A DNA stretch of 63,515 bases. Origin: Thermoplasmatota archaeon. Lineage in GTDB: Archaea; Thermoplasmatota; SW-10-69-26; JACQPN01; JAIVGT01. The notes beneath the pieces are model-generated. The model was not told the DNA's origin. It ran no database searches and saw only the letters and a program-made list of their open reading frames with translations. This document shows, piece after piece, positions 5,177 through 56,790 of this stretch; the stretch's first letter is position 1, and the number at the start of each line of letters is the position of its first letter. Where the stretch lies: NCBI GenBank assembly GCA_035541015.1, contig DATLFM010000035.1, positions 1 through 63,515 on the forward strand. Direction: 5' to 3'. The translations under genes were made by a program, and so were the position numbers.

Positions 5177-5198
5177 GAAACGACCGAAACCGTCCGGA

Positions 5199-5240
5199 GG
5201 CAAGGCCCCGCGCGGGCCTTGCCCCTTCCTTTTTTTTTTA
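5199..5240 (+). terminator. Stem-loop plus T10 terminator
   Basis: GGCAAGGCCC (5199-5208) pairs perfectly with GGGCCTTGCC (5214-5223) around the 5-nt loop CGCGC. A T10 run follows at 5230-5239. The structure starts 23 nt after the stop at 5176. Confidence 0.7.
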
Positions 5241-7786: not shown

Positions 7787-7841
7787 CTCGCTTTTGAATG
7801 TGGTATTTAAGGTTTTCTCGTGAGAGCGGCGCTCGGTCGCC

Positions 7842-7849
7842 TTTATATA
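7842..7849 (+). promoter_or_regulatory. TATA box (TTTATATA) heading the giant-protein operon
   Basis: Canonical archaeal TATA octamer in an AT-rich spacer. It starts 37 nt upstream of ATG 7879, so the transcript would be nearly leaderless. A second weaker TATTTAAG lies at 7804-7811. Confidence 0.6.
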
Positions 7850-7878
7850 CTTTCCATTGCCTGCGCCCTGTGCCTCGG

Positions 7879-10800: not shown

Positions 10801-11538
10801 GGCCGGCGCACGATCGAGATCGACGCGGTCGACGAGGCCGGCAACGCGGCGCGACAGGTCGCCGAGTTCCAGATCGACAACCAGCCGCCTCGCACGAGCC
10901 TGGCCACGCCGCCGCGCGCGGTCGCCTCCCCGCTTTCGATTCCGCTGACGGCCTCTGACGACCGCAGCGGCGTGCGCGCCGTGTGGGTCTCCGTGAACGG
11001 TAGCGCGTTTGCGCCCCTGGAGCTCCTGCATCTCAACCAAAGCGGCCGCTACGAGGTTTCCTACTACGCGGAGGACGGCGCCGGCAACGCCGAGGCGCCT
11101 CGCAACTTCACGGTGGTCGTCGACTTCGACGCTCCCCGTCTCGAGCCGCCCGCCGGAGGCCGGCCTTCGCGCGCGGCCGTCGGCGAGCCGTTTGCGATCG
11201 CCGTCCGCGCCACGGACCTCTCGCTGCGCGAGGTGACCGCCCGCGTGACGGTGGACGGCCGCGAGGTCGCGCGACTGGTCCTCCAACCCGAGGGCCGAAC
11301 GGGCGTGCACTCCGCCTCCTACGCGCCCACGCGCGAAGGCCTCCACCAAATCCGGCTCGAGGCGACCGACGAAGCCGGCAACGTGGGGACGCAGACCTTC
11401 GAGGTGTCCGTGGGCAACCCGCTGTGGACGCTGCTTGCCGTGGGAGCGCTTGCGGGAGCGGTCGCCATCGTGGCGCTTGCCGTCTGGGCGCGCCGGCGCC
11501 GGCTGCGCGAGGAGGAAGAGGAGGAGCTTTCCCGATGA
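7879..11538 (+). CDS. Surface glycoprotein candidate (1219 aa): Ig/Fn3-like module array, C-terminal TM, poly-Arg then poly-Glu tail
   Basis: The ATG at 7879 was chosen over the ORF-track start 7798 because of the TATA position. An N-terminal TM/signal-anchor GVFLLVALAALALLVLLIVGSAQA is present. 31 of about 55 Asn residues sit in N-x-S/T sequons (my count). There are several D-x-AGN modules. It ends LWTLLAVGALAGAVAIVALAVWARRRRLREEEEEELSR*. Confidence 0.75.
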   Translation: MVKTFNSEQTEPGAAPTELGGTRSKRADRVGVEFPVGEAVEGTEPFRGHVGVFLLVALAALALLVLLIVGSAQAGHAPAVSNVTAMEFLVNQAATMHVVVTNVQNDGGAPPLGLNETTVFAPPGIHFSTVGQEHQGPSGWSVSARSDRVRFSAPVGSSGLAGGQSTTLALRVAHIDARPQDGTANLTIETQSPALDRIRSDLPLSLRVLSATLLVVEPAGARDLVASNGTTVTLRLAVKSHASVALSSVQANLTVRMSDRFIDNTTSPVPVAAAIAPNDTVFFSFNLRLDPRNGTRALVGSAFQGNATTGPFNGTLALHVVSPAVLRLPANNASNTTWQAISNGTLPDVQRATDLWVRLENPGDADVVLGAPRLRLLRAGAGGSEDLSDRFTIQRIDTTDRVAGRSNVTLLWNVTALRTLAFEGEIDAELRVPWGDANLDLTPNTLAPAPLRGVFLADLSPPRVTSLSVLPSGQAWTVDGNNVTIYATFDDVSRDRGFVAYANVSRTFHNGTVWETGPMNRTGDLFWFNFSTNLTFLNATFLPSRFDASFPNHTEFVGAWNARVEGVDGAGFRAFSEMASFHIQDGVPPQIANVNVTPRTQPHVPGTTVNLSAEVFDNIRVAAVRATVTRSVPSEPEPIVVLDDAPMRPLAVDANQGGTYTLVAPFPPGELTLRVTAVDGSGTSNLSAPFSFSIVDTNPPSIGRVRLDGVERLAASSTRTIHLTVEASDDDAVHHVDIVVRDLHTRRSVAVDANATLRADGTYVTRLSRGEGSVFERRGPLPLPEGSYEIQATAFDWNLNARSSPPAGDWQLFVDNTPPRRPELIAPADGAILTARPTLSWTHVGGLDREATDGYHVMLDTTPEGGSPNARRMEVRGATEVAVDLPDGIWHWRVVAFDLAGNENATGVRSFTIDSSAPVLRTRPASGGFVRTGGSVVVEAQDLTLSRLTVTSGGVVLYSGQEPLVTVDTLTWTSGRRTIEIDAVDEAGNAARQVAEFQIDNQPPRTSLATPPRAVASPLSIPLTASDDRSGVRAVWVSVNGSAFAPLELLHLNQSGRYEVSYYAEDGAGNAEAPRNFTVVVDFDAPRLEPPAGGRPSRAAVGEPFAIAVRATDLSLREVTARVTVDGREVARLVLQPEGRTGVHSASYAPTREGLHQIRLEATDEAGNVGTQTFEVSVGNPLWTLLAVGALAGAVAIVALAVWARRRRLREEEEEELSR
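11518..11526 (+). promoter_or_regulatory. SD-like GAGGAGGAG for ATG 11535
   Basis: Formed by the poly-Glu (GAG) codons of the upstream tail. GGAGG at 11520-11524 lies 10 nt before the ATG. Confidence 0.45.
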
Positions 11539-40392: not shown

Positions 40393-40395
40393 GCG

Positions 40396-43300: not shown

Positions 43301-44481
43301 GGCTCTCCGTCAAGCCCGGCCTTCCGGAGACGGTGAGCCTAAGCGTGGGCGTCCCCGAGGGGGCCCCCGCGCTCACCATCTTCCAGGTGACCGTGCACGG
43401 CATCTCCGTCAACGACCCCACGCAGCGCGCCACCGCGGAGGCTACGGTGTTCGTGAACCCGGTGCACGCCATCCGGGCCACCGCCCGCCAGACGCAGGTG
43501 AACGTGACAGCGGAGGACCGCCTGGCCCGCTTCGACCTCACCGTTCGCAACGCGGGCAACCTCGACGACGTGGCCCGCATGGTGGTCGTGGAAGCTCCCG
43601 ACGGGTGGAACGTCACGCTGCCAGAGCCCGTGCCGCTTGCGCCCGGCGAGCGGGAATCCCAGGCGCTTCGCGTGCAGCCCCGCGCCGACGCGCTCGCGGG
43701 CGTCTACAACGTCACCGTGGGATTCCTGGCCTCCAGCGGCCCGCCCTGGCCCCTGCCGCTTGCCGTGGGCATCGCCCCCATCCGCGAGGGAAGCGTCCAG
43801 GTCGACAGCCTTGCGCTTGAGGCCGGCACGCAACGCTCGGTCCCCGTGCGCATCGTCAACACCGGCAACGTTCCGCTCTTGCTGGCGCTCGAGACGAACG
43901 CGGTCGGTTGGCTGCAGGCGCGGCTGAACGCCTCGGACGCACGCGTGCCCGCCTTCGGCGAGGCGACGCTTGCCCTCACGCTGTCGCCCCTGGAAGGCCA
44001 GCAGGGTACGGAGGAGGTGCTCCTCCGCGGCGTCACGGAGGGCGGGGAGGCGGAGATCACCGGCACCGTGCGGGTGGCCGTGGCCCGCCTGGACCTGCGC
44101 GTGGGCAACCTTTCGATCTCGCGCATCCCAACCCCGGGCCAGGACGTCCTGCTGCGGGCGGTCGTGTCCAACCCAACCCCCCTTCTCGTCGAAGGCGTCG
44201 TCGCGCGGCTCATCGTGGACGGGGTCCCGCTGGCCAACGTGACGATCGACGTCCTGCCCGGCGGGCGCGAGGTCCCCGTTCAGTTCCGCTGGATCGCGCA
44301 AGCGGGCCTCCACGAGCTTGCGATCGCGGCGCAGGCGCAGGGATCGGCGCACGAACTGGCGAGCAACGTGGCGACCCTGCAGGTGGACGTTCGCGCGTCC
44401 TTGCCGGGACCCGAAGCGGCCGCCGCGGGGCTTGCGCTTGCGGCCGCGGTGGCGATCCGCGTGCGGAGGTCGCGTGGATGA
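40396..44481 (+). CDS. Secreted protein (1361 aa): N-terminal beta-rich domains, then an array of NEW3/COG1470-like and CARDB-like Ig modules, PGF-CTERM-like tail (LPGPE)
   Basis: Signal peptide MRRGGGRGRRAAVAALLALLLPQLALSPAAAA. Repeated units have the form ...v.N.G......l.v...P.GW.a.l (VEGVPAGWTAEILPS, VVRSSDWNATLAD, VVEAPDGWNVTLPE). It ends SLPGPEAAAAGLALAAAVAIRVRRSRG*. Confidence 0.8.
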   Translation: MRRGGGRGRRAAVAALLALLLPQLALSPAAAAGEEVFDPGGLATARWWGPEDDAGWHFRVPVAVHPRINLTHEGLEMAPYLPRLVNHPVEAELDLSKLLLTAGWLNDSMGGQPFLRSFTLDLDSFRVVEYTGFFGRDHHPIVNNPQREGPEHVREEVPYVLNTALFAQRTPRPFDAGTNPIVTLTWLAKDVHAPRFFYVYFDILENGRKPAPSYAGEEMERLDALSGATRANVFYGETYNANNFDRNRVVTVVALDANTRVRFYEYSTSPARPLLQPSREVVLGRGEAASYEVGATRASDGRFKVVADKPVVAYAAARGADSRGRPVDVGTFHPSEDGTLVGRSFLLYATSAQFMIVAPNAGEEARGTLYHVHPGGAEEEVARFRYEPLTPGSTFRTQFLRVNLAGHAGAVHGVLRYAADAGSAPVFLVSVGPGVFPAITPAGGVAGTSVFSVAKREGTFRLVSPVNEARVEVGNLDLAGGVLCGDQPVSPGLAATLGETLARAWDSSVGGCIYSHDTMALPVPVYFKTGSRSPSQRILATSTTTKMDAREQFVYQTVAGKARQEHVLVAKLTEQTGGHGRITIFAHHNETRVQLRHADENAFSSVLLDAGGYRVFEPLHGGYTVTSNKPVTVLWRMDRGGAFGGALGGRLVPAEAEIGAVEWGSYLVRLSAAKRSAFVAPGGETTFDLGVSAIGQRTSGRFLPDRIHLAVEGVPAGWTAEILPSDAVIENRVQNPQSGVLRVKAPPGNASDVPPAQVIVRATSLSNPRMSDSIQFIVAVSIHYEILLTFDTHGLRPDPIRQAGVRPGNATTYDLALVNLGDVADTARLEVVRSSDWNATLADADGNPVSTVALQPRESRILRLRVEAPTETVTLTDFTNVIATSTGNALAFSAVTAITTINPEFRIAFFLENATQYVDPGSTVEFPLVAVNAGEIEDQIDLQVQHVPLAGRYANWTVNLSGESLFAGRLSVKPGLPETVSLSVGVPEGAPALTIFQVTVHGISVNDPTQRATAEATVFVNPVHAIRATARQTQVNVTAEDRLARFDLTVRNAGNLDDVARMVVVEAPDGWNVTLPEPVPLAPGERESQALRVQPRADALAGVYNVTVGFLASSGPPWPLPLAVGIAPIREGSVQVDSLALEAGTQRSVPVRIVNTGNVPLLLALETNAVGWLQARLNASDARVPAFGEATLALTLSPLEGQQGTEEVLLRGVTEGGEAEITGTVRVAVARLDLRVGNLSISRIPTPGQDVLLRAVVSNPTPLLVEGVVARLIVDGVPLANVTIDVLPGGREVPVQFRWIAQAGLHELAIAAQAQGSAHELASNVATLQVDVRASLPGPEAAAAGLALAAAVAIRVRRSRG
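44465..44469 (+). promoter_or_regulatory. SD GGAGG for ATG 44478
   Basis: Lies inside CGG-AGG-TCG (R-R-S) of the upstream tail, 8 nt before the ATG. Confidence 0.55.
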
Positions 44482-47400
44482 GGCGGGCCAAGGGCTTGGC
44501 CCTTGCCCGCCATGCGAGGAGCCTCGCGCTTGCGCTGGCGCTCTCCCTCGTCCTCACGCTGGGGGCCCTCGGCCTTGCCGCGCTGTCGGCCATGGACGCG
44601 CGGCCGGTGGCCGGCCACGATCCGGGCGTGCGCGGCGAGACCGTGATCCCGCTCGAGGACACGATCGGCGACGGTCTGGCCGACGTGGACGAGATCTTCC
44701 GCTACGGAACGAATCCGCAGCGCATCGACACGGCCGGCGACGGCATCCCCGACGGCTGGAAGGTCGCCTGGCAGGGATGCGACGCCGCGGGCTTCTGCCG
44801 CCCCGATCCCCTCCGCGCCGACGCGGGCGACCGCCTGTCGGGACCCGAGGGCATGACAAGCCTCGAGAAGTACGAGTGGACGCGGCAAAACCTCGTCGAG
44901 CCCGCGGAGGCGGCCTGCCAGTGCAAGCTGCGCGGCGAGGCTCTCATGGACCTGTTCCGCCGCGGGCTTGATCCCTGGAAGCTCTCCACGGTCGACGACG
45001 GCATCCCGGACACCTACAAGATCCGGTACGGCCTGGATCCGCTGGACCCGGAGCTTGCGGAGAAGGACCCCGTCGGCAAGGGCATGACGATCCGCGAGCA
45101 GGCCCGCCACGGCCTGGACCCCTTCCGGCTCGACACCTCCAACAACGGGCTGTCGGACTACGAGGCCATCCACGTCTACCGCACCGACCCCACGAAGTTC
45201 TCGACCGTGAACGACGGCATTCCCGACGGGTGGAAGGTCCGCTACGGGCTCGACCCGCTCGATCCGCTCCTCGCGTGGGCGGACCCCTCCGGCACGGGCG
45301 CCACGATCCTCGAGGAGTATCGCTTCAACCTGCCCCAAGGCTGGACGGAGCGCGACGGCGTCTGGTGGAACGGCACGAATCCCATGCTCGCCGACACGGG
45401 CGGCGACGGCTTGGGGGACGATTTTGCCGCCCGCTTCGGCGTTCAGCCCCGCCAGCTCGCCTGCCCGCCGCCGGCGGCGCCGCAGGCCCGCTGCCCGAAC
45501 TCCCGCTACGATCCGACGCAGCACCACCCGGGCGCCGACCCGACGGGCACGGGCCTTACGCTGAAGATCGCCTACGAGCAGAAGCTCGGGCCGTTCCGGC
45601 AGAGCGTGGACCCCTTCCGATCCGACGCCGATGGCGACGAGATCCTCACGATCGAGGAGGTCCAAGGGTACGACATCGTGGTCAACGGGCGCAGCGCGCG
45701 CGTCTTCTCGAATCCCAACGTTTTCGACACGGCCGGCGACGGCCTTGGCGACAAGCGAAAGCGCGAGCTTGGCCTCTCGCCGATCACTTCGGACACGGAC
45801 GGCGACGGGCTGCCCGACCGCCTCGAGATCGACCTTGGGACCGACGCGCTCAAGGAGGATTCCGCCGGCGATGGCCTGCTCGACGGCGAGCGGTACGAGT
45901 ACCTTCGCGTGCGGCACGCGCAGGAGATCGCCCGCCTCGAGGGCGGCAACCGGACGTTCGTCGATCGCCTGCGCGCCTTGGACGACGCGTACGCAAGCCT
46001 CGACGACCGCGGCTTGCTGGACCTGCTGGGACCCAACGCCACGCTGCGGCCCTCCGCCACGGACCGCAAGAACATGCTCGAGCCCGACTGGGACGGCGAC
46101 GGGCTCGTGAACGGGCAGGAGGTCAAGCCCGACACGGGCCTCATCCCGATTCCCCCGACCACCTGCCCGGACGCGCAGGGGCGCACGGGTCCGCGGTCCC
46201 CCATCGATCCCATGCTCTCCGACACCTCGGGCGACGGCCTTCGCGACGGATGGAAGGTCGCCAACGCCTGCTGGGTCCCGTCGCTTGGAGGCTGGGACCT
46301 CGACGCCTCGAAGTACGACAGCGACGGAAGCGGCGTCTCCGACGGGGAGAAGAACTTCATGAACGACGGGATCCACTTCTACGATCCCAACCGCGGCGCG
46401 CTCCAGTACGTTCCCTTCCACAACCTGCGCAACCAGCAGTACGGAACGAACCCGCACCTTCTGGACTCCTCGGGCGATGGCCTCTCGGACGGGTACGAGG
46501 CGCTCTGGACGGAGCGCAAGCCCGAGGGCGCGCCCGACGGATGGCGGCTCGATCCCACGAAGGCGGACACGTTTGTGGGCGATCCCCTGTACTGCCCGAC
46601 CGCGGATCCCTGCCGCGACGGCGACCGCGACTTCCTCGAGGGGATCGAACCCGTGCGGATCCACAACCGGACCGCCACGACGGCCGGCAACGTCGTGTGC
46701 GACCTCGTGTCGCTCAACGTGACCCAACGCCACGCCGCGCGGGTGAGTCCGTTCCATCCGCAGACGCTTGCCGACGGCGTGCCCGACGCCTACAAGATCG
46801 CCTACGCCCTCGATCCGCTGGACGCCGACCTCGTGCGCGCGCGGCTCGACGGCGACGCGCACGGCCTCACGCTCCTGCAGAAGTGGCAGGTCTCGCAGCT
46901 GGGGCTGGGCCCGCCAGGCTGCGGCGCCCATCCCCTCGAATCGGACACCGACGGAGGGGGCATCCCCGACGCGCTCGAGCTCTCGCTTGGCTTGAACCCG
47001 CTGGACCCGGGGGACGACGATCCCACGGGCGATCCCACGAACTCGGGCCTCACCACGCGGGCCAAGATCGCGCTTGGGCTTGATCCCTTCACTCGGGACT
47101 CGTCGGGCAACGGCCTCATCGACGGCGGCTTTGGGCGGTTTGGGTTCACCGACGAGATGATCCTCGACATCGTCGACGGCCGCGACGTCGTGATCCCCAA
47201 TCCGAACACGCGCCGTTGCCCGCAGGCGGACCCGGTCCTTTGCCCGGCCGGCTCGTACAACGACCTTGACATCAAGGACCCCTCGCAGTGGGACAGCGCC
47301 GGCGACGGCCTCCCCGACGACTGGAAGATCGCGTACGGGCTCACGCCGGTGGGCGAGCGCTATGCGCATCTCCGCGCACCCGACGGGCTCACCTACCTTC

Positions 47401-50400
47401 AGAAGTACCGCTGGGGAATGCCGGCCGACTGGAACCTCCAGCCCGACGGCACGTTCGACTACCGCAAGGACGGCACGTGGTGGGGGGGCCTCCACCCGCA
47501 GGATGCGCGCACCGACGGTCGCACGTTTGATCCCGACCAGCGCGACCTCGACCACGACGGGCTCGACGACTTCAACGGGGAGGATCCGTTTCCCGTCGAC
47601 GACCAGGACAACGACGGGACCTGGGACACCACGGCGCCCTGGGACTCCGGCGGGCCCTGGTGCTCCAACGACGCCGTCGTGAGCCGCGGCGGGAACCCGA
47701 GCGACCTCTGGACGCGGGGCATCCGCTACGGAAACTGCCTGGACCGCTACCCCAAGCGGCTCTCCTTGCACACCGACGCCGACCGAAACGGCATCCCCGA
47801 CTGGCAGGACCGCGTCGCGATGTCGGTGACCGCCACGGCGCCCGAGGGCAACCTCGTGAGCAAGGCCTCGCCCTTTGTGGTCTCGGCCCGCGTGACCTGC
47901 GCGGCCACGAACGATCGCGCGCGCCGCGAATGCGCCGCCGTCGGGGCCCCCGTCGCGGGGGTCCCCGTGCTCGTGAGCCTCGACGATCGGGCCCTGGCCG
48001 CGGGCCCGGACGCCTACGCCCCCGACGGCCGGGGGCTCACGAACCTGCTTGGCGCGGGCTTCACCGACGCCGACGGCCGCGTGCAGATCGTCGCAAGCTT
48101 CGGGCGCAACTCGGTCGTCGTGCCCGCGGGTCTCACGCTTGCCGGGCGGACGGGCGAGCTCGCCTGGACGTACGCGCGGACGATCCCCGCCGGCCCGGGG
48201 CATCATCTCCTCGTCTGGGTCCCCAACACGACGGCCGCCCCCGGCGGCCCGCCCCCTCTTTCGGGCGCGACGGCGTCCTTTGCCGTGCAGGTCCATTCGA
48301 CCTCCCACTTCCTGCTGGACTCGAGTCCGACGGTGGAGAACGAGCGTCCGCTTGTCGTGGCCGCGCGCCTCGTCGATTCGACGCAGTCGCCGCTGGCCAA
48401 CCGCAACGTGACCCTTGCGTGGATGGGAACGACCGTCGTGCGCACGACCGACGGTGCGGGCGCCTTCAACGCCACGCTGCCCACGCCCGACCGCGAGCCC
48501 GGAGCGTACCCGCTTGTCCTGAGCTTCGCCTCGAGCGAGGCCCTCCTCGTCTCGAACCAGACGGCGCAGCCGATCCGCGTGCAGTATCCAACGCGATTCT
48601 CGGGCCTGCAGGTCGTTCCCGCGCTGCCCGCCACGGGCGAGCGGATCACCGCCTCGGCCGCGCTTCTGGACTACCGCGGCGAGCCGCTTCCCGGGCGGAC
48701 GGTCGTCCTGCTGCTCGCGGGGGCCGAGGTTGCAAACGCGACGACCGACGACAACGGGACCTTCGCGCTCTCCTACGTCCTGCCCCGCACCGTGGCCGCG
48801 GGCCTGCACAACCTCACGGTGCGCTTCGCCGGCGAGCCTGCCGCCGAGGACGCGCGCCTGTACCGCGAGGTCGCCGCGTACCCGGGCTTGAGCGTTCGCC
48901 GCGCCACCGCGATGTCCCTGCGGGACTTCCACGTGTTCCGCGGCGCCGGCGCGGCCGTCGTCAACGGGACGCTCCTCGACGAGAACGGCGAGCCGTTTGC
49001 GTGCAACGTCGCGATCGTCCTCGGGGGCCTCCATCGCGCCACGGCCGAATGCGACGCGCGCGGCCAGTTCCGCGCGACGATCCCGCACAGCGCGCTTGCG
49101 CGGCAGGTCGGCGCGGTGCCTCTGGTCGCCGAGTTCGTGGGGACGCCCTTCCACCGGGAGAGCCGCGCCGTCTCCACGATGTTCATCCAGGGGCTGCCGC
49201 ACGTCGCGCTCTCCGTGGGCGACGCGCAGCGGCAGCGGCCCTACTTCCTCAACGGGACGGTCCTCGACGACGCGGGCCAGCCGATCCGCGGGCAGGCCGT
49301 CGTGGCGACCTTCGCGGGAGCGCCCCTGCCCCCCGCGCCCACCGACGCCGACGGGCGGTTCTCGATCCGCTTCCTCGTCCCCCGCGAGACGCTCCTTGGC
49401 ACGGCCGTCGTGACCGCCCGGCTCTCGCCCACGCCCGCCTACGCCGACGGCGAGATCGCCACGGCAAGCGTGCGGGTGCTTGCCGCCACGGTGCTCACCT
49501 TGCCCGAGCGGGGATTGTTCCGCGGCGACGCCGTGCTCGCCGGACGGCTCCTCGACGACCTGGGCCGGCCCGTGACGGGCGCGCGCGTGAGCCTGTTCCT
49601 CGAGAACCGCACGCACGAGGTCGCCACCGCGCTCGACGGCGGGTTCTCCCTATCGGTGAACCTCCCCTCGTCGCGCGCCGCAGGACCGCTTTCCGCGCTC
49701 GCGCGGTTCGGGGGCTTTGGCGACTACGCTTCGACCCAGGTCGCCTCCACGTACTCCGTCCTCGGGCGCGCGAGCTTTGCCGACTTTGTCGTCGGCAACC
49801 TCGCCGCCGGCCGCGAGAACCCCGTGTCCGGGCGGCTTGCGCAGGAGAACGGGGCCCCCGTCCCCGCCGGCCAAGTGCGCATCCGCGTGGACGGCGCGGA
49901 CATGGTCGCCCTGCCCGTCGCGGCTTCGGGGACCTTCGCTGGAGCGCTTGCCCTGCCCGCGTCCTTCCCCGCCGGATCGCACCTCCTGGAGGCCACCTAC
50001 GAGGGCGCGTTCATGACGGAGGCGCGCCTTGCCCGCAGCGTGCGAGTGCTCGTGCCCGTGGAGCTCTCCGCCGTGGTCGAATCCGAGTCGCTTGCGCCCG
50101 GGCAGGCGTTCCGCACGCAGATCCTCCTGCGCGAGGCGGCCTCCGGGGCGCCCGTCCAGGGCCGCGTCGGCGTCGGCTTGGCCTATCGCAACGCGACGGT
50201 GAACCTCACGGTCTTCACGGACGCCCAAGGGCGCGCCTCGTTCTCGACCGTGTTCCAGGAGGGTCTCACGCTCACGATGCGCTACGGCGGCGACGATGCG
50301 CGCGCGCCCGAGACCACCGTGGTCGCCCTGCAGCGCACCCACGCGCTCGTTCCGGGGGGGCTCACGGGCCTCGTCGCGCTCCTGGGCGCGCTTGCAGCCG

Positions 50401-50807
50401 TCCTGCTTGGCGTGGCCTACCTCGTCGCCCGTCGCGAGCGCGCGCGCGTCGAGGAGGCCCGCGCCATCGTGGAGTGGCTCGAGGGCCGCCTGCGGGCCGG
50501 CGACGAGGCCGCCGCGGTCGTCATCGCCGCCCACGCGCGGCTCGTCGAGCACTTCGCCCGCCACGGCGTGCTGGCCAAGGAGGCCGCCACGGCGCGCGAG
50601 GTCGCGCAGGCCGCCACGGAGAGCCTGGCCATCCATCCCGACCGCATGAGCGGCTTCACGGAGCTCTTCGAGCGCGCGCGGTACTCGGGCCGGCCCATCG
50701 AGGACCCGGACAAGGCGCGCGCCTTGCGGCTTCTGCGCGGCATCCTCGACGATCTCGACTTCGCGCTTGGCCGGCGGCTTGGCACCTCCGCGCGGGGGAC
50801 GCCATGA
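44478..50807 (+). CDS. Giant bitopic protein (2109 aa): signal peptide, ~22 thrombospondin-type-3-like Ca-binding repeats, ~8 CarboxypepD_reg-like beta-sandwiches, one TM helix, C-terminal DUF4129-like domain
   Basis: ATG 44478 overlaps the upstream TGA (ATGA); the ORF-track start 43908 lies inside the previous gene. TSP3-like units (DTAGDGIPDGWK, TVDDGIPDTYKIRYGLDPLDP, DTDGDGLPDRLE and others) span about 44650-47830. Units of the form G..V.v.l.g......TDa.G.f....lP span about 47830-50290. The TM helix LTGLVALLGALAAVLLGVAYLVA lies at about 50361-50432. The DUF4129-like end contains FTELFERARYSGRPIEDPD. Confidence 0.8.
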   Translation: MRRAKGLALARHARSLALALALSLVLTLGALGLAALSAMDARPVAGHDPGVRGETVIPLEDTIGDGLADVDEIFRYGTNPQRIDTAGDGIPDGWKVAWQGCDAAGFCRPDPLRADAGDRLSGPEGMTSLEKYEWTRQNLVEPAEAACQCKLRGEALMDLFRRGLDPWKLSTVDDGIPDTYKIRYGLDPLDPELAEKDPVGKGMTIREQARHGLDPFRLDTSNNGLSDYEAIHVYRTDPTKFSTVNDGIPDGWKVRYGLDPLDPLLAWADPSGTGATILEEYRFNLPQGWTERDGVWWNGTNPMLADTGGDGLGDDFAARFGVQPRQLACPPPAAPQARCPNSRYDPTQHHPGADPTGTGLTLKIAYEQKLGPFRQSVDPFRSDADGDEILTIEEVQGYDIVVNGRSARVFSNPNVFDTAGDGLGDKRKRELGLSPITSDTDGDGLPDRLEIDLGTDALKEDSAGDGLLDGERYEYLRVRHAQEIARLEGGNRTFVDRLRALDDAYASLDDRGLLDLLGPNATLRPSATDRKNMLEPDWDGDGLVNGQEVKPDTGLIPIPPTTCPDAQGRTGPRSPIDPMLSDTSGDGLRDGWKVANACWVPSLGGWDLDASKYDSDGSGVSDGEKNFMNDGIHFYDPNRGALQYVPFHNLRNQQYGTNPHLLDSSGDGLSDGYEALWTERKPEGAPDGWRLDPTKADTFVGDPLYCPTADPCRDGDRDFLEGIEPVRIHNRTATTAGNVVCDLVSLNVTQRHAARVSPFHPQTLADGVPDAYKIAYALDPLDADLVRARLDGDAHGLTLLQKWQVSQLGLGPPGCGAHPLESDTDGGGIPDALELSLGLNPLDPGDDDPTGDPTNSGLTTRAKIALGLDPFTRDSSGNGLIDGGFGRFGFTDEMILDIVDGRDVVIPNPNTRRCPQADPVLCPAGSYNDLDIKDPSQWDSAGDGLPDDWKIAYGLTPVGERYAHLRAPDGLTYLQKYRWGMPADWNLQPDGTFDYRKDGTWWGGLHPQDARTDGRTFDPDQRDLDHDGLDDFNGEDPFPVDDQDNDGTWDTTAPWDSGGPWCSNDAVVSRGGNPSDLWTRGIRYGNCLDRYPKRLSLHTDADRNGIPDWQDRVAMSVTATAPEGNLVSKASPFVVSARVTCAATNDRARRECAAVGAPVAGVPVLVSLDDRALAAGPDAYAPDGRGLTNLLGAGFTDADGRVQIVASFGRNSVVVPAGLTLAGRTGELAWTYARTIPAGPGHHLLVWVPNTTAAPGGPPPLSGATASFAVQVHSTSHFLLDSSPTVENERPLVVAARLVDSTQSPLANRNVTLAWMGTTVVRTTDGAGAFNATLPTPDREPGAYPLVLSFASSEALLVSNQTAQPIRVQYPTRFSGLQVVPALPATGERITASAALLDYRGEPLPGRTVVLLLAGAEVANATTDDNGTFALSYVLPRTVAAGLHNLTVRFAGEPAAEDARLYREVAAYPGLSVRRATAMSLRDFHVFRGAGAAVVNGTLLDENGEPFACNVAIVLGGLHRATAECDARGQFRATIPHSALARQVGAVPLVAEFVGTPFHRESRAVSTMFIQGLPHVALSVGDAQRQRPYFLNGTVLDDAGQPIRGQAVVATFAGAPLPPAPTDADGRFSIRFLVPRETLLGTAVVTARLSPTPAYADGEIATASVRVLAATVLTLPERGLFRGDAVLAGRLLDDLGRPVTGARVSLFLENRTHEVATALDGGFSLSVNLPSSRAAGPLSALARFGGFGDYASTQVASTYSVLGRASFADFVVGNLAAGRENPVSGRLAQENGAPVPAGQVRIRVDGADMVALPVAASGTFAGALALPASFPAGSHLLEATYEGAFMTEARLARSVRVLVPVELSAVVESESLAPGQAFRTQILLREAASGAPVQGRVGVGLAYRNATVNLTVFTDAQGRASFSTVFQEGLTLTMRYGGDDARAPETTVVALQRTHALVPGGLTGLVALLGALAAVLLGVAYLVARRERARVEEARAIVEWLEGRLRAGDEAAAVVIAAHARLVEHFARHGVLAKEAATAREVAQAATESLAIHPDRMSGFTELFERARYSGRPIEDPDKARALRLLRGILDDLDFALGRRLGTSARGTP

Positions 50808-52036
50808 AGCGCCCCCGCTTCGCCCGGGCGCCCGGCGGAGGCCGCTTTCCACGCGTCCCCTGGGCGGCGCTTGCCGTCGCCGTGGCGCTTGCCGCCGTCG
50901 TCTCCACGCTTGCCCTCTCGCTTGTGCCCACCTCCGGTCGCACGCCCTACGGCGACGGCTGGGACGACCTCTCGGAATTCCGCTCGGTCGTCCAGGGCGA
51001 GCAGTACGCCTTCGGCACGGTGTACGCTTCCCCGCTTCTCCTGAAGGACGTGCCCGACCCGTCGCGGACGCTCTACGTCGTCGCCGGCGCCGAGCGTTCC
51101 TACTCGGAGGAGGAGGCCCTGGCCGTGGTCGACTTCTTCCTGCGCGGCGGACGCCTGCTCGTCCTGGAGGACACGGGCAGCGCAAACCAGGTCTCGCTTC
51201 GCCTGGGCGTGCAGTTCGACGGCGTGCGCCTCTGGGACTCCGCCTTCGACGGCACGCGCGACACGGCGTACGTTCGCGTCCAGATCCGGCTCGAGAAGGG
51301 CGCGCACGACATCCTCACGAACCTTCCCACGAGCCTTCGCGTGCTCGAGCGCGCGCCCGCGGGCGTTCGGCTCGACACGATCGGGGAGAGCACGCGCCAC
51401 AGCTACATCGAGCAGGACGGGGCGGAGGGGATCACCGAGGGCGACCTTCCGGGGCCCTTTGCCGTGGCCGTCGTCCTCGAGCACGAGGCCTCCGGCGGGC
51501 GCGCGCTGTTCCTTGGCGACTCCCACGTGATCGCCAACGCCCTGCTGCTCGAGTCGAGCAACCGGCGGTTTGTGGCCGGCGTCCTCTCGGAGCTCCTTCC
51601 AAGCGGCGGAACCGTCCTCCTCGACGCCTCGCGCCTCTCGCACGGCGGGGCTGGGCTTCGCGAGCTTGTCGCAAGCGCGGTCGCTTCCGTGCGCTGGCCC
51701 GTCCTTGGGCTTGTGCCCGTGGGCGCCGCGCTTGTGGCCCTGGCCGCCTTCGCCGGCCTGCGACGGACGCAGGCCGCGCGGGACGCGCCCTTGTTCGACC
51801 ACCGATTCGCGCCCGACGCGCCGCGCAACCCGCCGGAGAGCCCTTCGGCCTTCCGTGACCGCCTCGCCCGGGCGGCCGCGGCCAAGCTCGGCTTGCCCCG
51901 GCTCCCCGACGATCCCGAGACGCTGCGCGCGGCCGTGCCCGATCCTGCGCTCGCGCGCGCGCTTGCGGCGCCCGAGGCGCCGGCGCGGGAGACCTGGCCG
52001 GACCTCGTCGATCGGCTGCGGAGGCTGCGCGGATGA
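50804..52036 (+). CDS. DUF4350-like membrane protein (410 aa)
   Basis: ATG 50804 overlaps the upstream TGA (ATGA). The architecture is an N-terminal TM (VPWAALAVAVALAAVVSTLALSLV), a ~280-aa extracytoplasmic domain, a second TM (WPVLGLVPVGAALVALAAFAGL) and a Pro/Ala-rich tail. This layout, together with its position next to DUF58 and MoxR, matches DUF4350. The family call is by architecture and context only. Confidence 0.6.
   Translation: MKRPRFARAPGGGRFPRVPWAALAVAVALAAVVSTLALSLVPTSGRTPYGDGWDDLSEFRSVVQGEQYAFGTVYASPLLLKDVPDPSRTLYVVAGAERSYSEEEALAVVDFFLRGGRLLVLEDTGSANQVSLRLGVQFDGVRLWDSAFDGTRDTAYVRVQIRLEKGAHDILTNLPTSLRVLERAPAGVRLDTIGESTRHSYIEQDGAEGITEGDLPGPFAVAVVLEHEASGGRALFLGDSHVIANALLLESSNRRFVAGVLSELLPSGGTVLLDASRLSHGGAGLRELVASAVASVRWPVLGLVPVGAALVALAAFAGLRRTQAARDAPLFDHRFAPDAPRNPPESPSAFRDRLARAAAAKLGLPRLPDDPETLRAAVPDPALARALAAPEAPARETWPDLVDRLRRLRG
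52020..52024 (+). promoter_or_regulatory. SD GGAGG for ATG 52033
   Basis: Lies inside CGG-AGG-CTG (R-R-L) of the upstream gene, 8 nt before the ATG. Confidence 0.5.
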
Positions 52037-53262
52037 TCACCGCGAAGGGACGCGCGTACCTCGCCGGGGGCGTCCTTGCGCTTCTGGCCGGCGTCGTGGC
52101 CGGCTCGGCCGCGCTTGCCGCCGCGGGCGTCCTTTTCCTCTCCGCGCTTCTCGTGGCCGGCCTGCTGCGGCGCGACCTCTCGATCTCCGTGCGACGCTCC
52201 GTCCAACCCCAGCGCCTGCGCGAGGGCGAATGGGTCGACGTGGACCTCGCGGTCGCCAACTCCGGCACGACCGCCGGCTTCCTCGAGGTGGCCGAGACGC
52301 TCTCCGAGCGGCTCGAGCTCTCCGGCAAGGCGCGCGAGATGCTCGCGCTTCGGCCCCGCGAGACGGCGGCGCTGCGCTACCGTCTGCGCGCGCACGTCAA
52401 GGGCGTGTACTCGGTGGGGCCGCTTGCCTACCGTGTCGAGGACGTCTTTGGCCTTTTCGCCGAGGACCTCCAACACCCGGAGGAGGCGTACTTCACGGCC
52501 ATCCCCGGCTCCGATGACGCGGAGGTCGAGGCCAAGAGCCGCATCCCGAAGGGATACCTTGGCGAGCACATCGTGCGGTCGCCCGGCCAGGGCATGGAGT
52601 TCTTCGGCCTTCGCGAGTACGTCCGCAGCGATCCCCTCAAGGAGGTCAACTGGAAGGCCTCCGCCCGCGCGGGCGAGCTCATCGTGAACCAGCGCGAGCG
52701 CGAGAGCATCACCGACGTGGCCGTCTTCTACGACTGCCGGGCCGCCTCCGGTCGCGGCACGGCCACCGTGAACGGCAACGTGCTTGGGGCGCGCGCCGTC
52801 GCCTCGATGCTCGAGATCCTGCTCGCCCGGCGCGACCGCATGAAGTTCGTCTCCTACGGCCCCCGCGTGGACGTCGTCCAGCCGGACACCGGCGACCGCA
52901 TGCGGCACAAGGTCCTCAACCTCCTCTCCGCGCTCGAGCCCGCGGGCGACACGCGCCTCCTCCAGGCGGTCGAGGCCGTGCTTCCCACGCTCTCGCGGCA
53001 GACCCCCGTCATCGTGGTCTCCAACCTCGAGGAGGACGCAAGCGTCGTGGAGGCCGTCTCGCGGCTTCGCGCGCGCGAGCTCAACGTCCTTGTCCTCTCG
53101 CCGCGCGCGCACTTCCCCACCGCGGACGCAAGCGTGGTCGAGCTTGCCGCCGCCGAGCGCGCGGCCGTCGTGGCGGCGCTCCGGGCCGCCGGCGCGCGCG
53201 TGCTCGACTGGGACCCGCAGGCGAGCTTCTCGATCGCCATGGCCAAGGGGGCGCTCCTGTGA
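52033..53262 (+). CDS. DUF58 family protein (409 aa)
   Basis: ATG 52033 overlaps the upstream TGA (ATGA). Two N-terminal TM helices are present. The DUF58 signature is GEHIVRSPGQGMEFFGLREYVRSDPLKEVNWKASARAGELIVNQRE. Confidence 0.8.
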   Translation: MITAKGRAYLAGGVLALLAGVVAGSAALAAAGVLFLSALLVAGLLRRDLSISVRRSVQPQRLREGEWVDVDLAVANSGTTAGFLEVAETLSERLELSGKAREMLALRPRETAALRYRLRAHVKGVYSVGPLAYRVEDVFGLFAEDLQHPEEAYFTAIPGSDDAEVEAKSRIPKGYLGEHIVRSPGQGMEFFGLREYVRSDPLKEVNWKASARAGELIVNQRERESITDVAVFYDCRAASGRGTATVNGNVLGARAVASMLEILLARRDRMKFVSYGPRVDVVQPDTGDRMRHKVLNLLSALEPAGDTRLLQAVEAVLPTLSRQTPVIVVSNLEEDASVVEAVSRLRARELNVLVLSPRAHFPTADASVVELAAAERAAVVAALRAAGARVLDWDPQASFSIAMAKGALL

Positions 53263-53771
53263 CCGTTCTCGCGTGGGGGGCGCTTCTTGCCGTGGCCGCG
53301 CTTGCGGTCCTCGACTCGCGCGTGGGCCCCCTTGCGCCCGGCGCCGCGGCGGGGGCGGCCCTTCTCCTGCACGCGCTCTCCGCCTCGCGCGCAAGCCTTC
53401 GCCTGCCGGCCATCGTGGCCGCCGCCGCCACGGGCGTCTTCCTCCTGCCGCAGGTCTCGCTGGCGGGCCTGGCGTGGGCCGCGTCGCTCTTCCTCTACGT
53501 CGAGTTCTCGACCTCCGGCGCGCGCCTGGCGCGCTGGGGCGAGGCCATCGTCGCGCGCTACCGGCGCGCGCTCGTAGGCCCCCTTGCGATGGCGTTTGCG
53601 CTTGCCCTTGCCGCCGTGCTTTTCCATCGCGCCCTCGCCTTCCTGCTGCCCCCGGCGCTTGGCGAAAGCCTCGAGCTTGCAAGCTCCTTTGGCATCGCGG
53701 CCGGGGCCATTCTCGTCCTTGGCGTGGCCTTGATCGCGGCCCGCTGGCGGGAACGGCTCCTTGCGGCCTAA
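53259..53771 (+). CDS. Small polytopic membrane protein (170 aa, about 5 TM)
   Basis: GTG 53259 overlaps the upstream TGA (GTGA). The sequence is almost entirely hydrophobic, Ala/Leu-rich helices. No family recognised. Confidence 0.6.
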   Translation: MTVLAWGALLAVAALAVLDSRVGPLAPGAAAGAALLLHALSASRASLRLPAIVAAAATGVFLLPQVSLAGLAWAASLFLYVEFSTSGARLARWGEAIVARYRRALVGPLAMAFALALAAVLFHRALAFLLPPALGESLELASSFGIAAGAILVLGVALIAARWRERLLAA

Positions 53772-53816
53772 GAGCGCCCGACGGGGCGCGAATCCGAGCC
53801 TCCCCCGCCATACGAC

Positions 53817-53823
53817 TTATATA
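53817..53823 (+). promoter_or_regulatory. TATA box (TTATATA) for the MoxR gene
   Basis: The only AT-rich element in the 81-nt spacer. It starts 36 nt upstream of ATG 53853, giving a near-leaderless start. Confidence 0.55.
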
Positions 53824-53852
53824 CGGAACGCCCCTCTTCCGACCTGACGCCG

Positions 53853-54857
53853 ATGGAGACCGACTTCAAGGTCTTGAAGGCCGCCCAGAAGGGCACCCGC
53901 TCGATCGCCAACGACGTCCAATGGGTGAGCGCCACCTGCAAGCGGCTCATCGAAGAGGTCGCCAAGGTCATCGTCGGCAAGCCGCACGTCCTCGAGCTTG
54001 TCACGGTCGACGTGCTCACGGCCGGCAACATCCTTTTCGAGGACTTCCCCGGCCTTGCAAAGTCGCTCATGGCGAGCACCTTCTCGCGCGCCTCGGGCTC
54101 CGACTTCAAGCGCATCCAGTTCACGCCGGACCTTCTGCCCGCCGACATCACGGGCATCTACATGTACAACCAACGCACGGGCGAGTTCGAGTTCCGGCCC
54201 GGCCCGGTCTTCACGAACTTCCTGCTCGCGGACGAGATCAACCGCGCGCCCCCCAAGACCCAATCGGCCCTTCTCGAGACCATGCAGGAGCGCCAGGTGA
54301 CGGTCGAAGGCAACACGCACGCGCTTGCCAAGCCCTACATCGTGCTTGCCACCCAGAACCCCGTCGAGCAGGAGGGAACCTACCCGCTCCCGGAGGCGCA
54401 GATGGACCGCTTCCTGATGAAGATGAGCGTGGGGTACCCGTCGCGCAAGGAGGAGGTCGAGATCCTCCGCCGACGCATGGTGCGCAAGAAGGACGACGTC
54501 GACGTGAAAGCCGTCACGACGCCCGAGGAGATCGTGAAGATGCAGAAGATCGTCGAGGAGATCCACACCGACGACGGCATCATGGAGTACATCGGCGAGA
54601 TCGTCTCGCGCACGCGCGAGGACCCCCGCATGGAGGTCGGCTCGTCGCCCCGCGGTTCGCTTGCCCTGTTCAAGGCGTCTCGCAGCTACGCCGCGGTGCA
54701 GGGCCGCGACTACGTCGTGCCCGACGACGTGAAGCGCATCCTCATGCCCAGCATGGCCCACCGCATGATCCTCAAGCCCGAGCCCAAGCTCAAGGGCGTG
54801 AAGACCGAGGACGTGCTGAAGAAGATCATCGACGAAGTGCCCGTGCCCAAGACGTGA
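53853..54857 (+). CDS. moxR: MoxR-family AAA+ ATPase (334 aa)
   Basis: P-loop region ILFEDFPGLAKS. Walker B FLLADEINRAPPKTQSALLETMQERQVTVEG. Also LATQNPVEQEGTYPLPEAQMDRF and the C-terminal SPRGSLALFKASRSYAAVQGRDYVVPDDVK typical of MoxR. Confidence 0.9.
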   Translation: METDFKVLKAAQKGTRSIANDVQWVSATCKRLIEEVAKVIVGKPHVLELVTVDVLTAGNILFEDFPGLAKSLMASTFSRASGSDFKRIQFTPDLLPADITGIYMYNQRTGEFEFRPGPVFTNFLLADEINRAPPKTQSALLETMQERQVTVEGNTHALAKPYIVLATQNPVEQEGTYPLPEAQMDRFLMKMSVGYPSRKEEVEILRRRMVRKKDDVDVKAVTTPEEIVKMQKIVEEIHTDDGIMEYIGEIVSRTREDPRMEVGSSPRGSLALFKASRSYAAVQGRDYVVPDDVKRILMPSMAHRMILKPEPKLKGVKTEDVLKKIIDEVPVPKT

Positions 54858-54900: not shown

Positions 54901-55122
54901 ATGATCATTCATCGCAGACGGGTCCGTTGGAAAACGCCGCTATCGGGAATTTTTATTTCCTGCAAAATATGGTTTGCCAAAGTACTTCTCGGGCCACCGC
55001 GTTTGCGGCGATGCCCACGGAACCCATCCCCCCAGCACCCGCTTGTTTCCCCGGTTGCGTGGGCTCCAACTCCCCGCCCAAATCGAAAGGAAGAAGCCCG
55101 GCCCAGGCTAGCACGGCCTGGC

Positions 55123-56759: not shown

Positions 56760-56784
56760 TTTATAGTCGCCCGCCCGGTATAAA
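56760..56784. promoter_or_regulatory. Back-to-back divergent TATA boxes
   Basis: TTTATAG at 56760-56766 (+) starts 31 nt before ATG 56791. GTATAAA at 56778-56784 (TTTATAC on the - strand) starts 34 nt before GTG 56750. Each TATA box lies beyond the other gene's start codon. Confidence 0.55.
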
Positions 56785-56790
56785 CGTACG

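Follow-up and report, generated by a model that had tools for sequence, protein, structure and literature searches.

A MoxR-DUF58 membrane module with a DUF4129-tailed giant surface protein at the end of a Thermoplasmatota gene chain

The window analyzed here, a stretch of 63,515 nucleotides (nt) from a Thermoplasmatota archaeon (contig DATLFM010000035.1), contains a chain of genes for very large secreted proteins that ends in a membrane module of five products, among them a DUF58 protein and a MoxR-family AAA+ ATPase. The DUF4129 domain of this module is the cytoplasmic tail of a surface protein of 2109 amino acids (aa), and the arrangement recurs in related contigs. An initial annotation made from the sequence alone had assigned DUF4129, DUF4350, DUF58 and MoxR to the genes listed in Table 1, and these assignments stand: all scores lie above the curated Pfam cut-offs (24.8 bits for DUF4129, 30.4 for DUF4350, 23.4 for DUF58, 27 for AAA_3 and 22.7 for AAA_lid_2), and the searches with hidden Markov models (HMMs) that it had proposed as a check recovered the four named families. 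All genes from 162 to 56373 are on the + strand, and housekeeping genes follow directly after MoxR. The window has a GC content of 70%, its proteins are not acid-rich (D+E about 0.10-0.13), and scans of it for Rfam families, tRNAs and tandem repeats gave no matches. The identical sequence is present in ENA assembly ERZ27256751 and in Logan SRR8438988.

Table 1. Secreted proteins, module genes and the MoxR spacer in the window (TM, transmembrane).
Feature	Position	Strand	Remarks
Secreted Big_7/Big_13/OmpL47-type protein, 822 aa	5318..7786	+	probably a separate transcription unit
Secreted or membrane Ig-like protein (Big_13, PKD), 1246 aa as annotated	7798..11538	+	first chain gene; C-terminal TM helix and acidic tail, no sorting-signal tail
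Ig-like (Big_13) secreted protein, ~1207 aa	11535..15158	+	lipobox-like N-terminus; tail LPGLE, hydrophobic, RRR
Giant secreted protein (fn3, Big_13), ~3898 aa	15155..26851	+	LPAFE-type tail
Giant secreted protein (InhA-like MAM, NPCBM_assoc, CARDB), ~4514 aa	26848..40392	+	LPGFE-type tail
Secreted protein (NPCBM_assoc), 1361 aa	40396..44481	+	LPGPE-type tail; choice-of-anchor T-like region, sub-threshold
DUF4129-tailed giant, 2109 aa	44478..50807	+	Pfam DUF4129 at aa 2020-2087 (nt 50535-50738), 39.4 bits
DUF4350 protein (arCOG01314-type, GldG-like), 410 aa	50804..52036	+	Pfam DUF4350, 40.3 bits
DUF58 protein, 409 aa	52033..53262	+	Pfam DUF58, 52.2 bits
5-TM protein, 170 aa	53259..53771	+	~5 hydrophobic helices, polytopic
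Spacer, 81 nt	53772..53852	+	GC-rich inverted repeat and TATA-like box between 5-TM gene and MoxR
MoxR-family AAA+ ATPase, 334 aa	53853..54857	+	AAA_3 210 bits, AAA_lid_2 82 bits; cytoplasmic

The 2109-aa giant has a predicted type-I topology, with a positively charged N-terminus, a hydrophobic signal or anchor, one TM helix at residues 1965-1983 (nt 50370-50426) and a DUF4129 domain on the cytoplasmic side. Big_3_5 and CarboxypepD_reg Ig-like domains and TSP3 repeats were also matched with Pfam and NCBIfam, and full-length orthologs have 2000-2300 aa. In an AlphaFold2 (AF2) model of the last 179 residues, based on a 40-sequence alignment and with a predicted local distance difference test score (pLDDT) of 89, the TM helix extends as one long helix into the cytoplasm and then leads into a four-helix bundle, the DUF4129 domain, whose conserved core reads T-x-R/P-E-F ... 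L-F-E-x-A-R-Y-S. A Foldseek search with this tail returned no significant match to a solved structure, only generic four-helix bundles at E >= 0.13, and a PDB sequence search with the 2109-aa protein gave no matches. Note that in a second assembly of this DNA, L082 (Logan SRR8438988; here and below, L-numbers designate loci recovered by scanning genome and metagenome collections, with annotation by locally iterated HMMs and by Pfam), 194 nt corresponding to window positions 50306-50499 in the TM region of the giant are replaced by the reverse complement of the central 85 nt. The junctions are located at inverted repeats of 11-15 nt, and the giant and the DUF4350 protein are fused into a 2474-aa open reading frame (ORF) without DUF4129, either through a misassembly or as a real structural variant.

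In the DUF4350 protein, TM helices are predicted at residues 23-41 and about 300-318, so that the GldG-like domain enclosed by the two is extracytoplasmic and the basic tail, about 90 aa long, is cytoplasmic. A match to ABC_transp_aux stayed below threshold (19.7 versus a cut-off of 34.7 bits), and as the window contains no ABC transporter genes, we rejected an identification with GldG or the gliding ABC transporter associated with the type IX secretion system. The DUF58 protein begins with two short hydrophobic helices around a Gly/Pro-rich turn that is flanked by basic residues on both sides. Its AF2 model, of moderate confidence (pLDDT 69, built on a 4-sequence alignment), consists of a helical hairpin, a beta-sandwich (residues 51-157) and an alpha/beta domain (residues 228-408). 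Foldseek matched the latter to von Willebrand factor A (vWA) domains, with BatB (3ibs) as the best hit besides CMG2, Rpn10 and TFIIH p44, and the beta-sandwich to CARDB and MG-type domains. At the metal ion-dependent adhesion site (MIDAS), where vWA domains have the motif DxSxS, the protein reads D-C-R-A-A, with D234 invariant in 21 sequences and R236 and A237 invariant in a closer set. DUF58 is thus probably a cytoplasmic, MIDAS-less vWA adaptor. Residues 160-226 (nt ~52510-52710), with the sequence PGxGxEFxxLREYxxGDxLRxVNWKASAR, form the most conserved stretch of the family and at the same time the sole part that AF2 leaves unmodelled (pLDDT < 50); they are a candidate partner-binding segment. 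The next product had been described as a 5-TM protein, and it is indeed polytopic, with about five TM helices and no Pfam or NCBIfam family. Its position is kept in relatives: it is the conserved fifth member of the set, always found after DUF58, with homologs in L001, L002, L009, L083, L168 and L169 and a weak match in L167.

The MoxR protein shares 58-79% identity with archaeal MoxR proteins, the nearest being encoded in metagenome-assembled genomes labeled Thermoplasmatota or 'Methanobacteriota' (65-79%). Because MoxR from Thermococcus is 64% identical and orphan MoxR proteins from Poseidoniales reach about 60% (58-62%), identity in this protein is unusable for orthology. The Poseidoniales proteins in question are encoded in L010-L080 as orphan genes for which orthology is not established; ORF sizes in L011 and L012 equal those of L010, and no DUF58 match was obtained in any locus of this group. 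In L004, MoxR follows a DNA ligase. The window gene has a GC content of 64% compared to 70-74% in its neighbors, and its product contains 7.8% lysine compared to at most 2.4% in the products of the upstream operon. A foreign origin was ruled out, as the GC content of third codon positions, 0.94, is like that of the neighbors, and the difference in GC reflects amino acid composition.

Upstream of MoxR the genes are tightly coupled. From 11535 to 53771 they are joined by ATGA overlaps (11535/11538, 15155/15158, 26848/26851, 44478/44481, 50804/50807 and 52033/52036) and one GTGA overlap (53259/53262), the sole non-overlap inside the chain being a 3-nt gap at 40393-40395 (40392/40396), and Shine-Dalgarno (SD)-like GGAGG or GAGGT motifs are found 8-10 nt 5' of the overlapping junction starts. 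The overlap coupling that the initial annotation had extended to the whole set is thus confirmed for this part but not for MoxR, which is preceded by the 81-nt spacer with its TATA-like box. The summed products of 7798 to 50807 come to about 14,335 aa, in agreement with the earlier estimate of about 14,300. In the products ending at 15158 and 26851 the tails close with RRRW[ST][AR]*, and the RRW codons provide the SD-like GGAGGTGG for the overlapping next gene, so that one sequence serves both in sorting-tail coding and as a translational coupling signal.

Against the 70% GC background, TATA-like sites stand out as AT-rich octamers, three of them located 31-37 nt 5' of an ATG. The first, TTTATATA at 7842-7849, is followed by ATG 7879, which begins 37 nt downstream; the second, CTTATATA at 53816-53823 in the MoxR spacer, lies 36 nt 5' of the MoxR ATG; and the third, at 56760-56765, precedes ATG 56791. 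The spacing of 31-37 nt is common to all three pairs (7842 to 7879, 53816 to 53853 and 56760 to 56791). A further TATA-like box is found at about 15198-15206, just within the annotated 3898-aa gene, which starts at ATG 15155 or TTG 15227. These positions suggest short-leader archaeal promoters and revised starts for two genes: the start codons annotated at 7798 and 15155 are in doubt, the true start of the first chain gene may be ATG 7879, and the boxes at 7842-7849 and about 15198 may act as internal promoters. MoxR probably has a separate promoter of its own in the 81-nt spacer. The only strong site of the region resembling an intrinsic terminator is a perfect GC-rich hairpin (GGCAAGGCCC...GGGCCTTGCC) with T10 at about 5195-5239, which terminates the 3728-5176 gene; in a scan of the + strand for runs of T5 or longer, none was found between 5240 and 54949, and the next is at 54950. 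The most likely layout is a chain from 7879 to 53771 (~46 kb) that may contain an internal promoter at about 15200, with MoxR under its own promoter. Because of the terminator upstream and the TATA box downstream at 7842, the 5318-7786 gene probably forms a separate unit.

Ig-like-type domains were found by Pfam in each of the upstream products, with Big_13, Big_7, PKD, fn3, CARDB and NPCBM_assoc spread over them, and the giants carry predicted Sec-type N-terminal signals. By eye, their C-terminal tails are tripartite, consisting of LP[GA]x[ED] (LPGFD, LPGFE, LPGLE, LPAFE, LPAME or LPGPE), about 17 hydrophobic residues and RRR. These had initially been taken for PGF-CTERM tails present on all of the large proteins, and neither part of that claim survived. 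When the PGF-CTERM model TIGR04126 was run against the last 45 residues of 7 products, none reached 24.5 bits, the best score being 8.5 for the 15155-26851 tail, and there was no match at all on the other tails; moreover, the 7798-11538 product and the 2109-aa protein end differently, the latter in its TM helix and DUF4129. Other sorting models gave sub-threshold matches only (Heimdall-CTERM 18.1 versus 24, GPS-CTERM 15.9 versus 28), and general scans found no match to the archaeosortase family among the scanned or annotated products of the window. Similar tails are present on giants of related contigs. The motif is probably a lineage-specific sorting signal.

Two of the upstream genes, 162-3560 and 5318-7786, encode close paralogs (phmmer E ~1e-259 over ~815 aa), whose tails are of the LPGFD and LPAME type. 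For 162-3560, the N-terminus as annotated resembles non-coding read-through, and the true start is probably located further downstream. Between them, the 3728-5176 gene encodes a secreted protein of 482 aa with 18 cysteines and no Pfam family, and has its own terminator; a kinship of this product to the four tandem 490-aa secreted paralogs that precede the module in L167 was considered and rejected, the proteins being unrelated. Note also that the MAM-like domain, found in the window on the 4514-aa giant, is located on the DUF4129-tailed giant, together with Peptidase_S8, in L165 and L168, a distribution that suggests domain shuffling among co-located giants.

Related loci were found by locus scans and by MoxR matches with look-up of their context. 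A word-indexed protein search was of little help, with no matches for DUF4350 and only 4 for DUF58, probably because Ala/Leu low-complexity words saturated the candidates. Homologs of DUF4350 were identified in L002, L009, L083, L165 and L167-169, and local HMMs support the homology of all four module components in the related loci. The order of genes in L169 is a 1377-aa NPCBM/CARDB protein, a 2099-aa DUF4129 giant, DUF4350, MoxR, DUF58 and a 224-aa protein. The locus shows synteny with the window, and its first two genes are orthologous to those of the 1361-aa and 2109-aa proteins. L165 contains a 1217-aa Big_13 protein and a 2847-aa S8/MAM/Ig giant ending in DUF4129, followed by DUF4350, MoxR and DUF58, while L168 comprises an 822-aa protein, a 2546-aa DUF4129 giant, DUF4350, MoxR, DUF58, a 229-aa TM protein and, last, a product of 903 aa or more. 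In L167, DUF4350, MoxR, DUF58 and a 187-aa protein are followed by a 3554-aa fn3/Big_13 giant, and on the opposite strand, some 9 kb upstream, a DUF4129 giant of 2142 aa is encoded. L009 has DUF4350, MoxR, DUF58 and the 5-TM protein, then Big_13 proteins of 1224 and 1294 aa. MoxR is thus located directly between DUF4350 and DUF58 in the relatives, but 1.8 kb past DUF4350 in the window.

The initial annotation had proposed looking for such modules beside giant secreted proteins in related genomes, and they are indeed found there. In these 5 other Thermoplasmatota contigs the DUF4350/MoxR/DUF58/5-TM set abuts Ig-like secreted proteins of 800-3500 aa. The DUF4129 tail is attached to a type-I membrane protein of 2100-2850 aa in all four contigs that show the gene fully, and in every DUF4350-type locus with enough flank (six of six, window included) additional large Ig-like proteins abut the module, with the gene order rearranged. 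The 3898-aa giant has homologs immediately 5' of MoxR in L164 (2819 aa) and L003 (at least 1759 aa), two loci that lack the rest of the module, and the paralog family of 5318-7786 and 162-3560 matches giants that lie 3' of the module in L009 and L168. The neighbors of MoxR in L163, L164 and L166 gave no match to the DUF58, DUF4350, DUF4129 or 5-TM profiles even at E = 10. As a background, an ORF of at least 1000 aa was present in 8 of 57 long orphan-MoxR loci (~14%), half of these eight being the close relatives L003, L163, L164 and L166; the corresponding figures were 0 of 9 for bacterial loci with the transglutaminase protein TgpA and 2 of 7 for compact archaeal loci, both described below.

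These data bear on the simplest alternative, that a housekeeping MoxR module borders by coincidence on a variable island of giant genes. Consistent with such a juxtaposition, MoxR has its own TATA-like box and a lysine content unlike that of the upstream products, housekeeping genes follow at once, and MoxR occurs as an orphan at about 60% identity in Poseidoniales. Nevertheless, DUF4129 is fused to a giant in the window and in at least 24 representative clusters, the abutting large proteins are found in all six informative DUF4350-type loci, homologous giants flank MoxR in L164, L003, L169, L009 and L168, and large ORFs near other MoxR loci are infrequent. Because of the fusion, and because synteny is rearranged yet maintained, a link between giants and module by chance is very unlikely; the explanation has largely been refuted already, and we find it barely credible.

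An exhaustive HMMER search with the TM helix plus DUF4129 tail yielded 273 proteins. Among the best 150 representatives of these 273, 24 have at least 1800 aa and 26 have 900-1500 aa, and the tail is always located at the extreme C-terminus. Most members of the longer group align with the window protein over 1400-2085 of its 2109 residues; they begin with a signal or anchor and have a single TM helix, which lies about 140 aa before the C-terminus. The only label that NCBI gives to the long proteins is 'DUF4129 domain-containing protein [Thermoplasmatota archaeon]'.

Three architectures can be distinguished. In type A, the compact archaeal form, a DUF4129 protein of about 300 aa with 4-5 TM helices is followed by a 2-TM protein of 150-190 aa, MoxR, DUF58 and a polytopic protein of 140-205 aa; it was found in L085, L089, L108, L117 and others and in Thermococcus sp. 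AM4 (L170), as a rule with no giants near. Type B is bacterial and consists of MoxR, DUF58 and TgpA, the latter comprising TgpA_N, a transglutaminase core and a DUF4129-like C-terminus that was detected with a locally iterated HMM (L112, L114, L122, L135 and L161; no giants). Type C, found in the clade of the window, has a giant ending in a TM helix and DUF4129, followed by DUF4350, (MoxR), DUF58 and the 5-TM protein, with giants near (window, L083, L165, L167, L168 and L169; in L002/L084 and L009 the visible stretch begins at DUF4350 and the DUF4129 gene lies outside it). A transglutaminase-like membrane protein, which the initial annotation had named as the usual companion of the set, does accompany it in the bacterial loci sampled but not in the compact archaeal ones. 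The DUF4129 tail thus tracks the MoxR-DUF58 pair whatever the extracytoplasmic head, and no other observation argues as strongly that the pair works on this tail.

The compact module of Thermococcus sp. AM4 has the same core as the window, in the order DUF4129-x-MoxR-DUF58-polytopic seen in the relatives of the window and with the 64% identical MoxR mentioned above. It differs in that the DUF4129 protein has no ectodomain, DUF4350 is missing and no giants are nearby. When the type-A 2-TM protein was compared for homology to the DUF4350 protein, in the part formed by its TM helix and tail, hhalign returned a probability of 42% with E = 2.7e-4 across 53 columns, and hmmsearch was insignificant. 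A type IV pilus-like locus with DUF515, an intein-containing T2SSE ATPase and two T2SSF genes lies some 1 kb away from the compact module in L170 (CP002952).

The initial annotation had stated that no system of such composition was described. This has to be revised, as one was predicted in 2015 and clusters of MoxR, vWA protein and transglutaminase with Ig/FN3 proteins have been described in Actinobacteria. Makarova, Galperin & Koonin (PMC5898192) predicted a DUF4350/arCOG01314-MoxR-vWA 'secretion or membrane remodeling complex' composed of DUF4350/arCOG01314, MoxR, an Ig-vWA protein, 5-TM proteins (arCOG07126/arCOG11232) and Ig-like surface proteins; DUF4350 was likened to GldG by HHpred, and the vWA protein was called 'likely secreted'. 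The window shares with this set a DUF4350 (pfam14258) protein with an N-terminal TM helix, an extracytoplasmic domain and a C-terminal TM helix, an adjacent COG0714/MoxR gene, a protein combining an Ig and a vWA (DUF58-type) domain, and neighboring Ig-like secreted proteins. The 2015 set includes 5-TM proteins among its small membrane proteins, and in the window and its relatives a protein of about five TM helices follows DUF58. The envelope role proposed in 2015 is essentially the one that the initial annotation put forward as its hypothesis. However, the 2015 description includes neither DUF4129 nor proteins of thousands of residues, its vWA protein is placed outside the cell while the predicted hairpin topology in the window places it inside, and its S-layer-like DUF1616/pfam07760 components did not turn up in the window. 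The 2015 complex was predicted computationally, and we found no experimental follow-up in the literature.

If this complex were a dedicated secretion system, DUF4350, DUF58, the 5-TM protein and MoxR would form a novel translocon for very large proteins, comparable to GldG and type IX secretion of SprB. The HHpred resemblance of DUF4350 to GldG, the weak ABC_transp_aux match in the window, a neighborhood made up mostly of membrane or secreted proteins and the recurrent association with giant, cargo-like proteins would all fit this idea. We nevertheless consider it improbable, as all giants carry Sec-type N-terminal signals, neither an ABC transporter (GldA or GldF) nor a pore-forming component is present, and the membrane parts are small, comprising a hairpin, single TM helices and one 5-TM protein. 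In addition, the flanking charges and the AF2 hairpin of DUF58 put the vWA domain in the cytoplasm and not outside, as in the 2015 model.

A bacterial counterpart is the PA2875-PA2874-tgpA operon of Pseudomonas aeruginosa, in which MoxR, DUF58 and TgpA are co-transcribed (PMC3507681) and the transglutaminase domain of TgpA is periplasmic. As in the window, MoxR and DUF58 are encoded beside a membrane protein with an extracytoplasmic functional head and a DUF4129-like cytoplasmic tail. The head, however, consists of TgpA_N and a transglutaminase core in a protein of 650-1200 aa, compared to an Ig/TSP3 ectodomain of about 1950 aa without transglutaminase in the window, and DUF4350, the 5-TM gene and flanking giants are missing. 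Neither Transglut_core nor TgpA_N was matched in the window products scanned, whereas both are present in all five type-B loci named above; without a transglutaminase, the window locus is not a TgpA operon. A MoxR-vWA-TGL operon has been predicted to be a degradation system by Zhang & Aravind 2012 (PMC3495828), and by analogy the window module might serve in membrane-proximal quality control or proteolysis, with MoxR unfolding or extracting membrane proteins recruited by DUF58 and the DUF4129-tailed protein supplying or regulating a peptidase. The Peptidase_S8 domain on the DUF4129 giant in L165 and L168 and the transglutaminase/cysteine-peptidase fold on the bacterial DUF4129 protein would be in line with this. 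We regard it as decidedly improbable: no peptidase or transglutaminase domain is recognizable in the DUF4129 giant of the window or its L169 ortholog, the compact modules are without an enzyme domain, and where catalytic domains are present they are extracytoplasmic, whereas MoxR is cytoplasmic.

A parallel for a large surface protein encoded with such a module is provided by Actinobacteria. In Schaalia, EsrA is a secreted filament with 14 Ig-like domains and a beta-propeller that is needed for the response to Saccharibacteria. Its gene is accompanied by those for MoxR, a vWA protein and a transglutaminase, the last of which keeps EsrA on the surface (bioRxiv 10.64898/2026.09.08.750141). The PFNA cluster of Bifidobacterium has the same layout, with a large filamentous Ig/FN3 surface protein and MoxR/vWA/transglutaminase (PMC8430577). 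Both resemble the window in encoding a large Ig/FN3-repeat surface protein together with MoxR and vWA/DUF58, they include a membrane protein of the TgpA kind, and from them there is genetic evidence for a large surface protein being served by a module of this kind. Esr differs from the window by its Ser/Thr kinase, phosphatase, FHA protein and transglutaminase, and its large protein is a separate secreted sensor retained by the transglutaminase, while in the window the giant itself is the DUF4129-tailed membrane subunit; furthermore, Esr is from a monoderm bacterium and the window from an archaeon. As no kinase, FHA protein or transglutaminase is present in the window, we do not identify the locus with Esr or PFNA; the search for Ser/Thr kinases, phosphatases and FHA proteins was negative among the products of 162-56373 as well as the downstream genes annotated in L081.

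The Esr precedent nevertheless raises the question of whether the Ig-repeat giants, chiefly the DUF4129-tailed one, might sense contact, an epibiont or a virus and relay this through the TM helix and DUF4129 to DUF58 and MoxR for an intracellular response. Esr, with EsrA required for the response to Saccharibacteria and PFNA showing the same layout, is the sole experimental precedent. In the model, the single TM helix is continuous with the cytoplasmic helical bundle, which would be a receptor-like architecture, and the variation of ectodomains, with S8/MAM in L165 and L168 and TSP3 in the window and L169, would fit diversifying recognition. However, neither the window locus nor the related type-C loci contain a kinase, phosphatase, FHA or other output domain, PADLOC gave no matches on the window, and the compact modules are entirely without an ectodomain, so that we consider sensing of this type to be rather unlikely.

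Two further systems were compared. The Bacteroides Bat (aerotolerance) operon MoxR-DUF58-BatA-E likewise has the MoxR and DUF58 pair, in combination with membrane vWA proteins such as BatB, whose structure 3ibs was also the best match of DUF58. The window, in contrast, contains no vWA membrane proteins of the BatA/BatB type and no TPR proteins, and Bat is without DUF4129, DUF4350 and giants. The MoxR-vWA-beta-propeller ternary conflict system (Kaur et al. 2020) was rejected, as bpMoxR scored 31 bits compared to 210 for AAA_3, no propeller or effector is present and PADLOC was negative. In the literature we found no description of DUF4129-tailed giants or of a coupling of the module to proteins of several thousand residues.

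Given the families, topology predictions, domain fusion and recurrent synteny found here, we have little doubt that the locus is the Thermoplasmatota version of a widespread MoxR-DUF58 membrane module. With high confidence, its core consists of a cytoplasmic MoxR, a hairpin-anchored DUF58 protein with a beta-sandwich and a MIDAS-less vWA domain, a membrane protein with cytoplasmic DUF4129 and a small polytopic protein. We are equally confident that in the Thermoplasmatota lineage the DUF4129 subunit gained its Ig-like/TSP3 ectodomain of about 1950 aa, a GldG-like DUF4350 protein was added and the set came to stand among giant Ig-like proteins. As for its function, we tentatively favor an inside-out device for the assembly or remodeling of a surface or adhesion complex, a proposal to which we would give slightly less than an even chance. 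DUF58 would tether a MoxR hexamer at the inner membrane face, and its vWA domain would present the DUF4129 four-helix tail, perhaps also the tail of DUF4350, to the ATPase. ATP-driven remodeling of the tail, transmitted via the continuous TM helix, would then alter a platform formed by the DUF4129 giant, DUF4350 and the 5-TM protein, and this platform would anchor, mature or organize the co-encoded giants after their export by Sec.

Several points weigh against this proposal. We infer every physical contact, including those that would join MoxR to DUF58 and to the DUF4129 tail, as well as the direction in which the module acts and the casting of the other giants as substrates or clients, and gene linkage together with one domain fusion is what points to the upstream giants as putative clients of the AAA+ protein. 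Given their ordinary N-terminal signals and sorting-like tails, export and anchoring of the giants call for no special machinery. MoxR is probably transcribed separately, as judged by the spacer and its TATA-like box. In the Pfam-scanned Poseidoniales locus L010, the orphan MoxR gene sits between aIF5B (IF-2) and a ParA/MinD-like ATPase; going by these Poseidoniales orphans, identity in MoxR is no guide to the presence of the module. Neither the compact nor the TgpA-type modules require a giant, so that the core function cannot be giant-protein assembly as such. In Esr, the only experimentally studied analog, the large surface protein is an upstream sensor and not a client (bioRxiv 10.64898/2026.09.08.750141). 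Finally, the related loci all belong to one phylum and are hence not phylogenetically independent.

A broader and bolder version of the inside-out mechanism would treat the DUF4129 four-helix tail as a universal handle that mechanically couples an ancient MoxR-DUF58 motor across the membrane to a lineage-specific head. This head would be a transglutaminase in bacteria (TgpA, EsrD), would be missing in compact archaeal modules and would be an adhesin-like arm of about 2000 aa in Thermoplasmatota. The window locus would then be an integrin-like, ATP-powered inside-out switch to extend, activate or release an adhesion complex of several giants on an archaeon that has no wall or is poor in S-layer. 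We hold this to be unlikely as it stands; if true, one mechanism would account for three systems that are now described apart.

Few gene pairs of unknown function are as widespread among bacteria and archaea as MoxR and DUF58; TgpA is an essential protein of P. aeruginosa, and in Esr such a module controls defense against epibionts. The findings presented here overturn nothing, as the composition of the module was predicted earlier, in 2015, and the mechanism is proposed by inference. What is new is the DUF4129-tailed giant and the gene chain of about 46 kb, a combination that is real, conserved and mechanistically suggestive. The locus and its relatives represent a natural Rosetta-stone fusion, in which the cytoplasmic DUF4129 tail is borne by a surface protein of about 2100 aa and chained to more giants, and this fusion points to the tail as what the ATPase/vWA pair acts on. 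The locus thus provides a concrete target for the 'novel archaeal secretion/remodelling complex' predicted in 2015, and it suggests how uncultured Thermoplasmatota may build or regulate their very large surface proteins.

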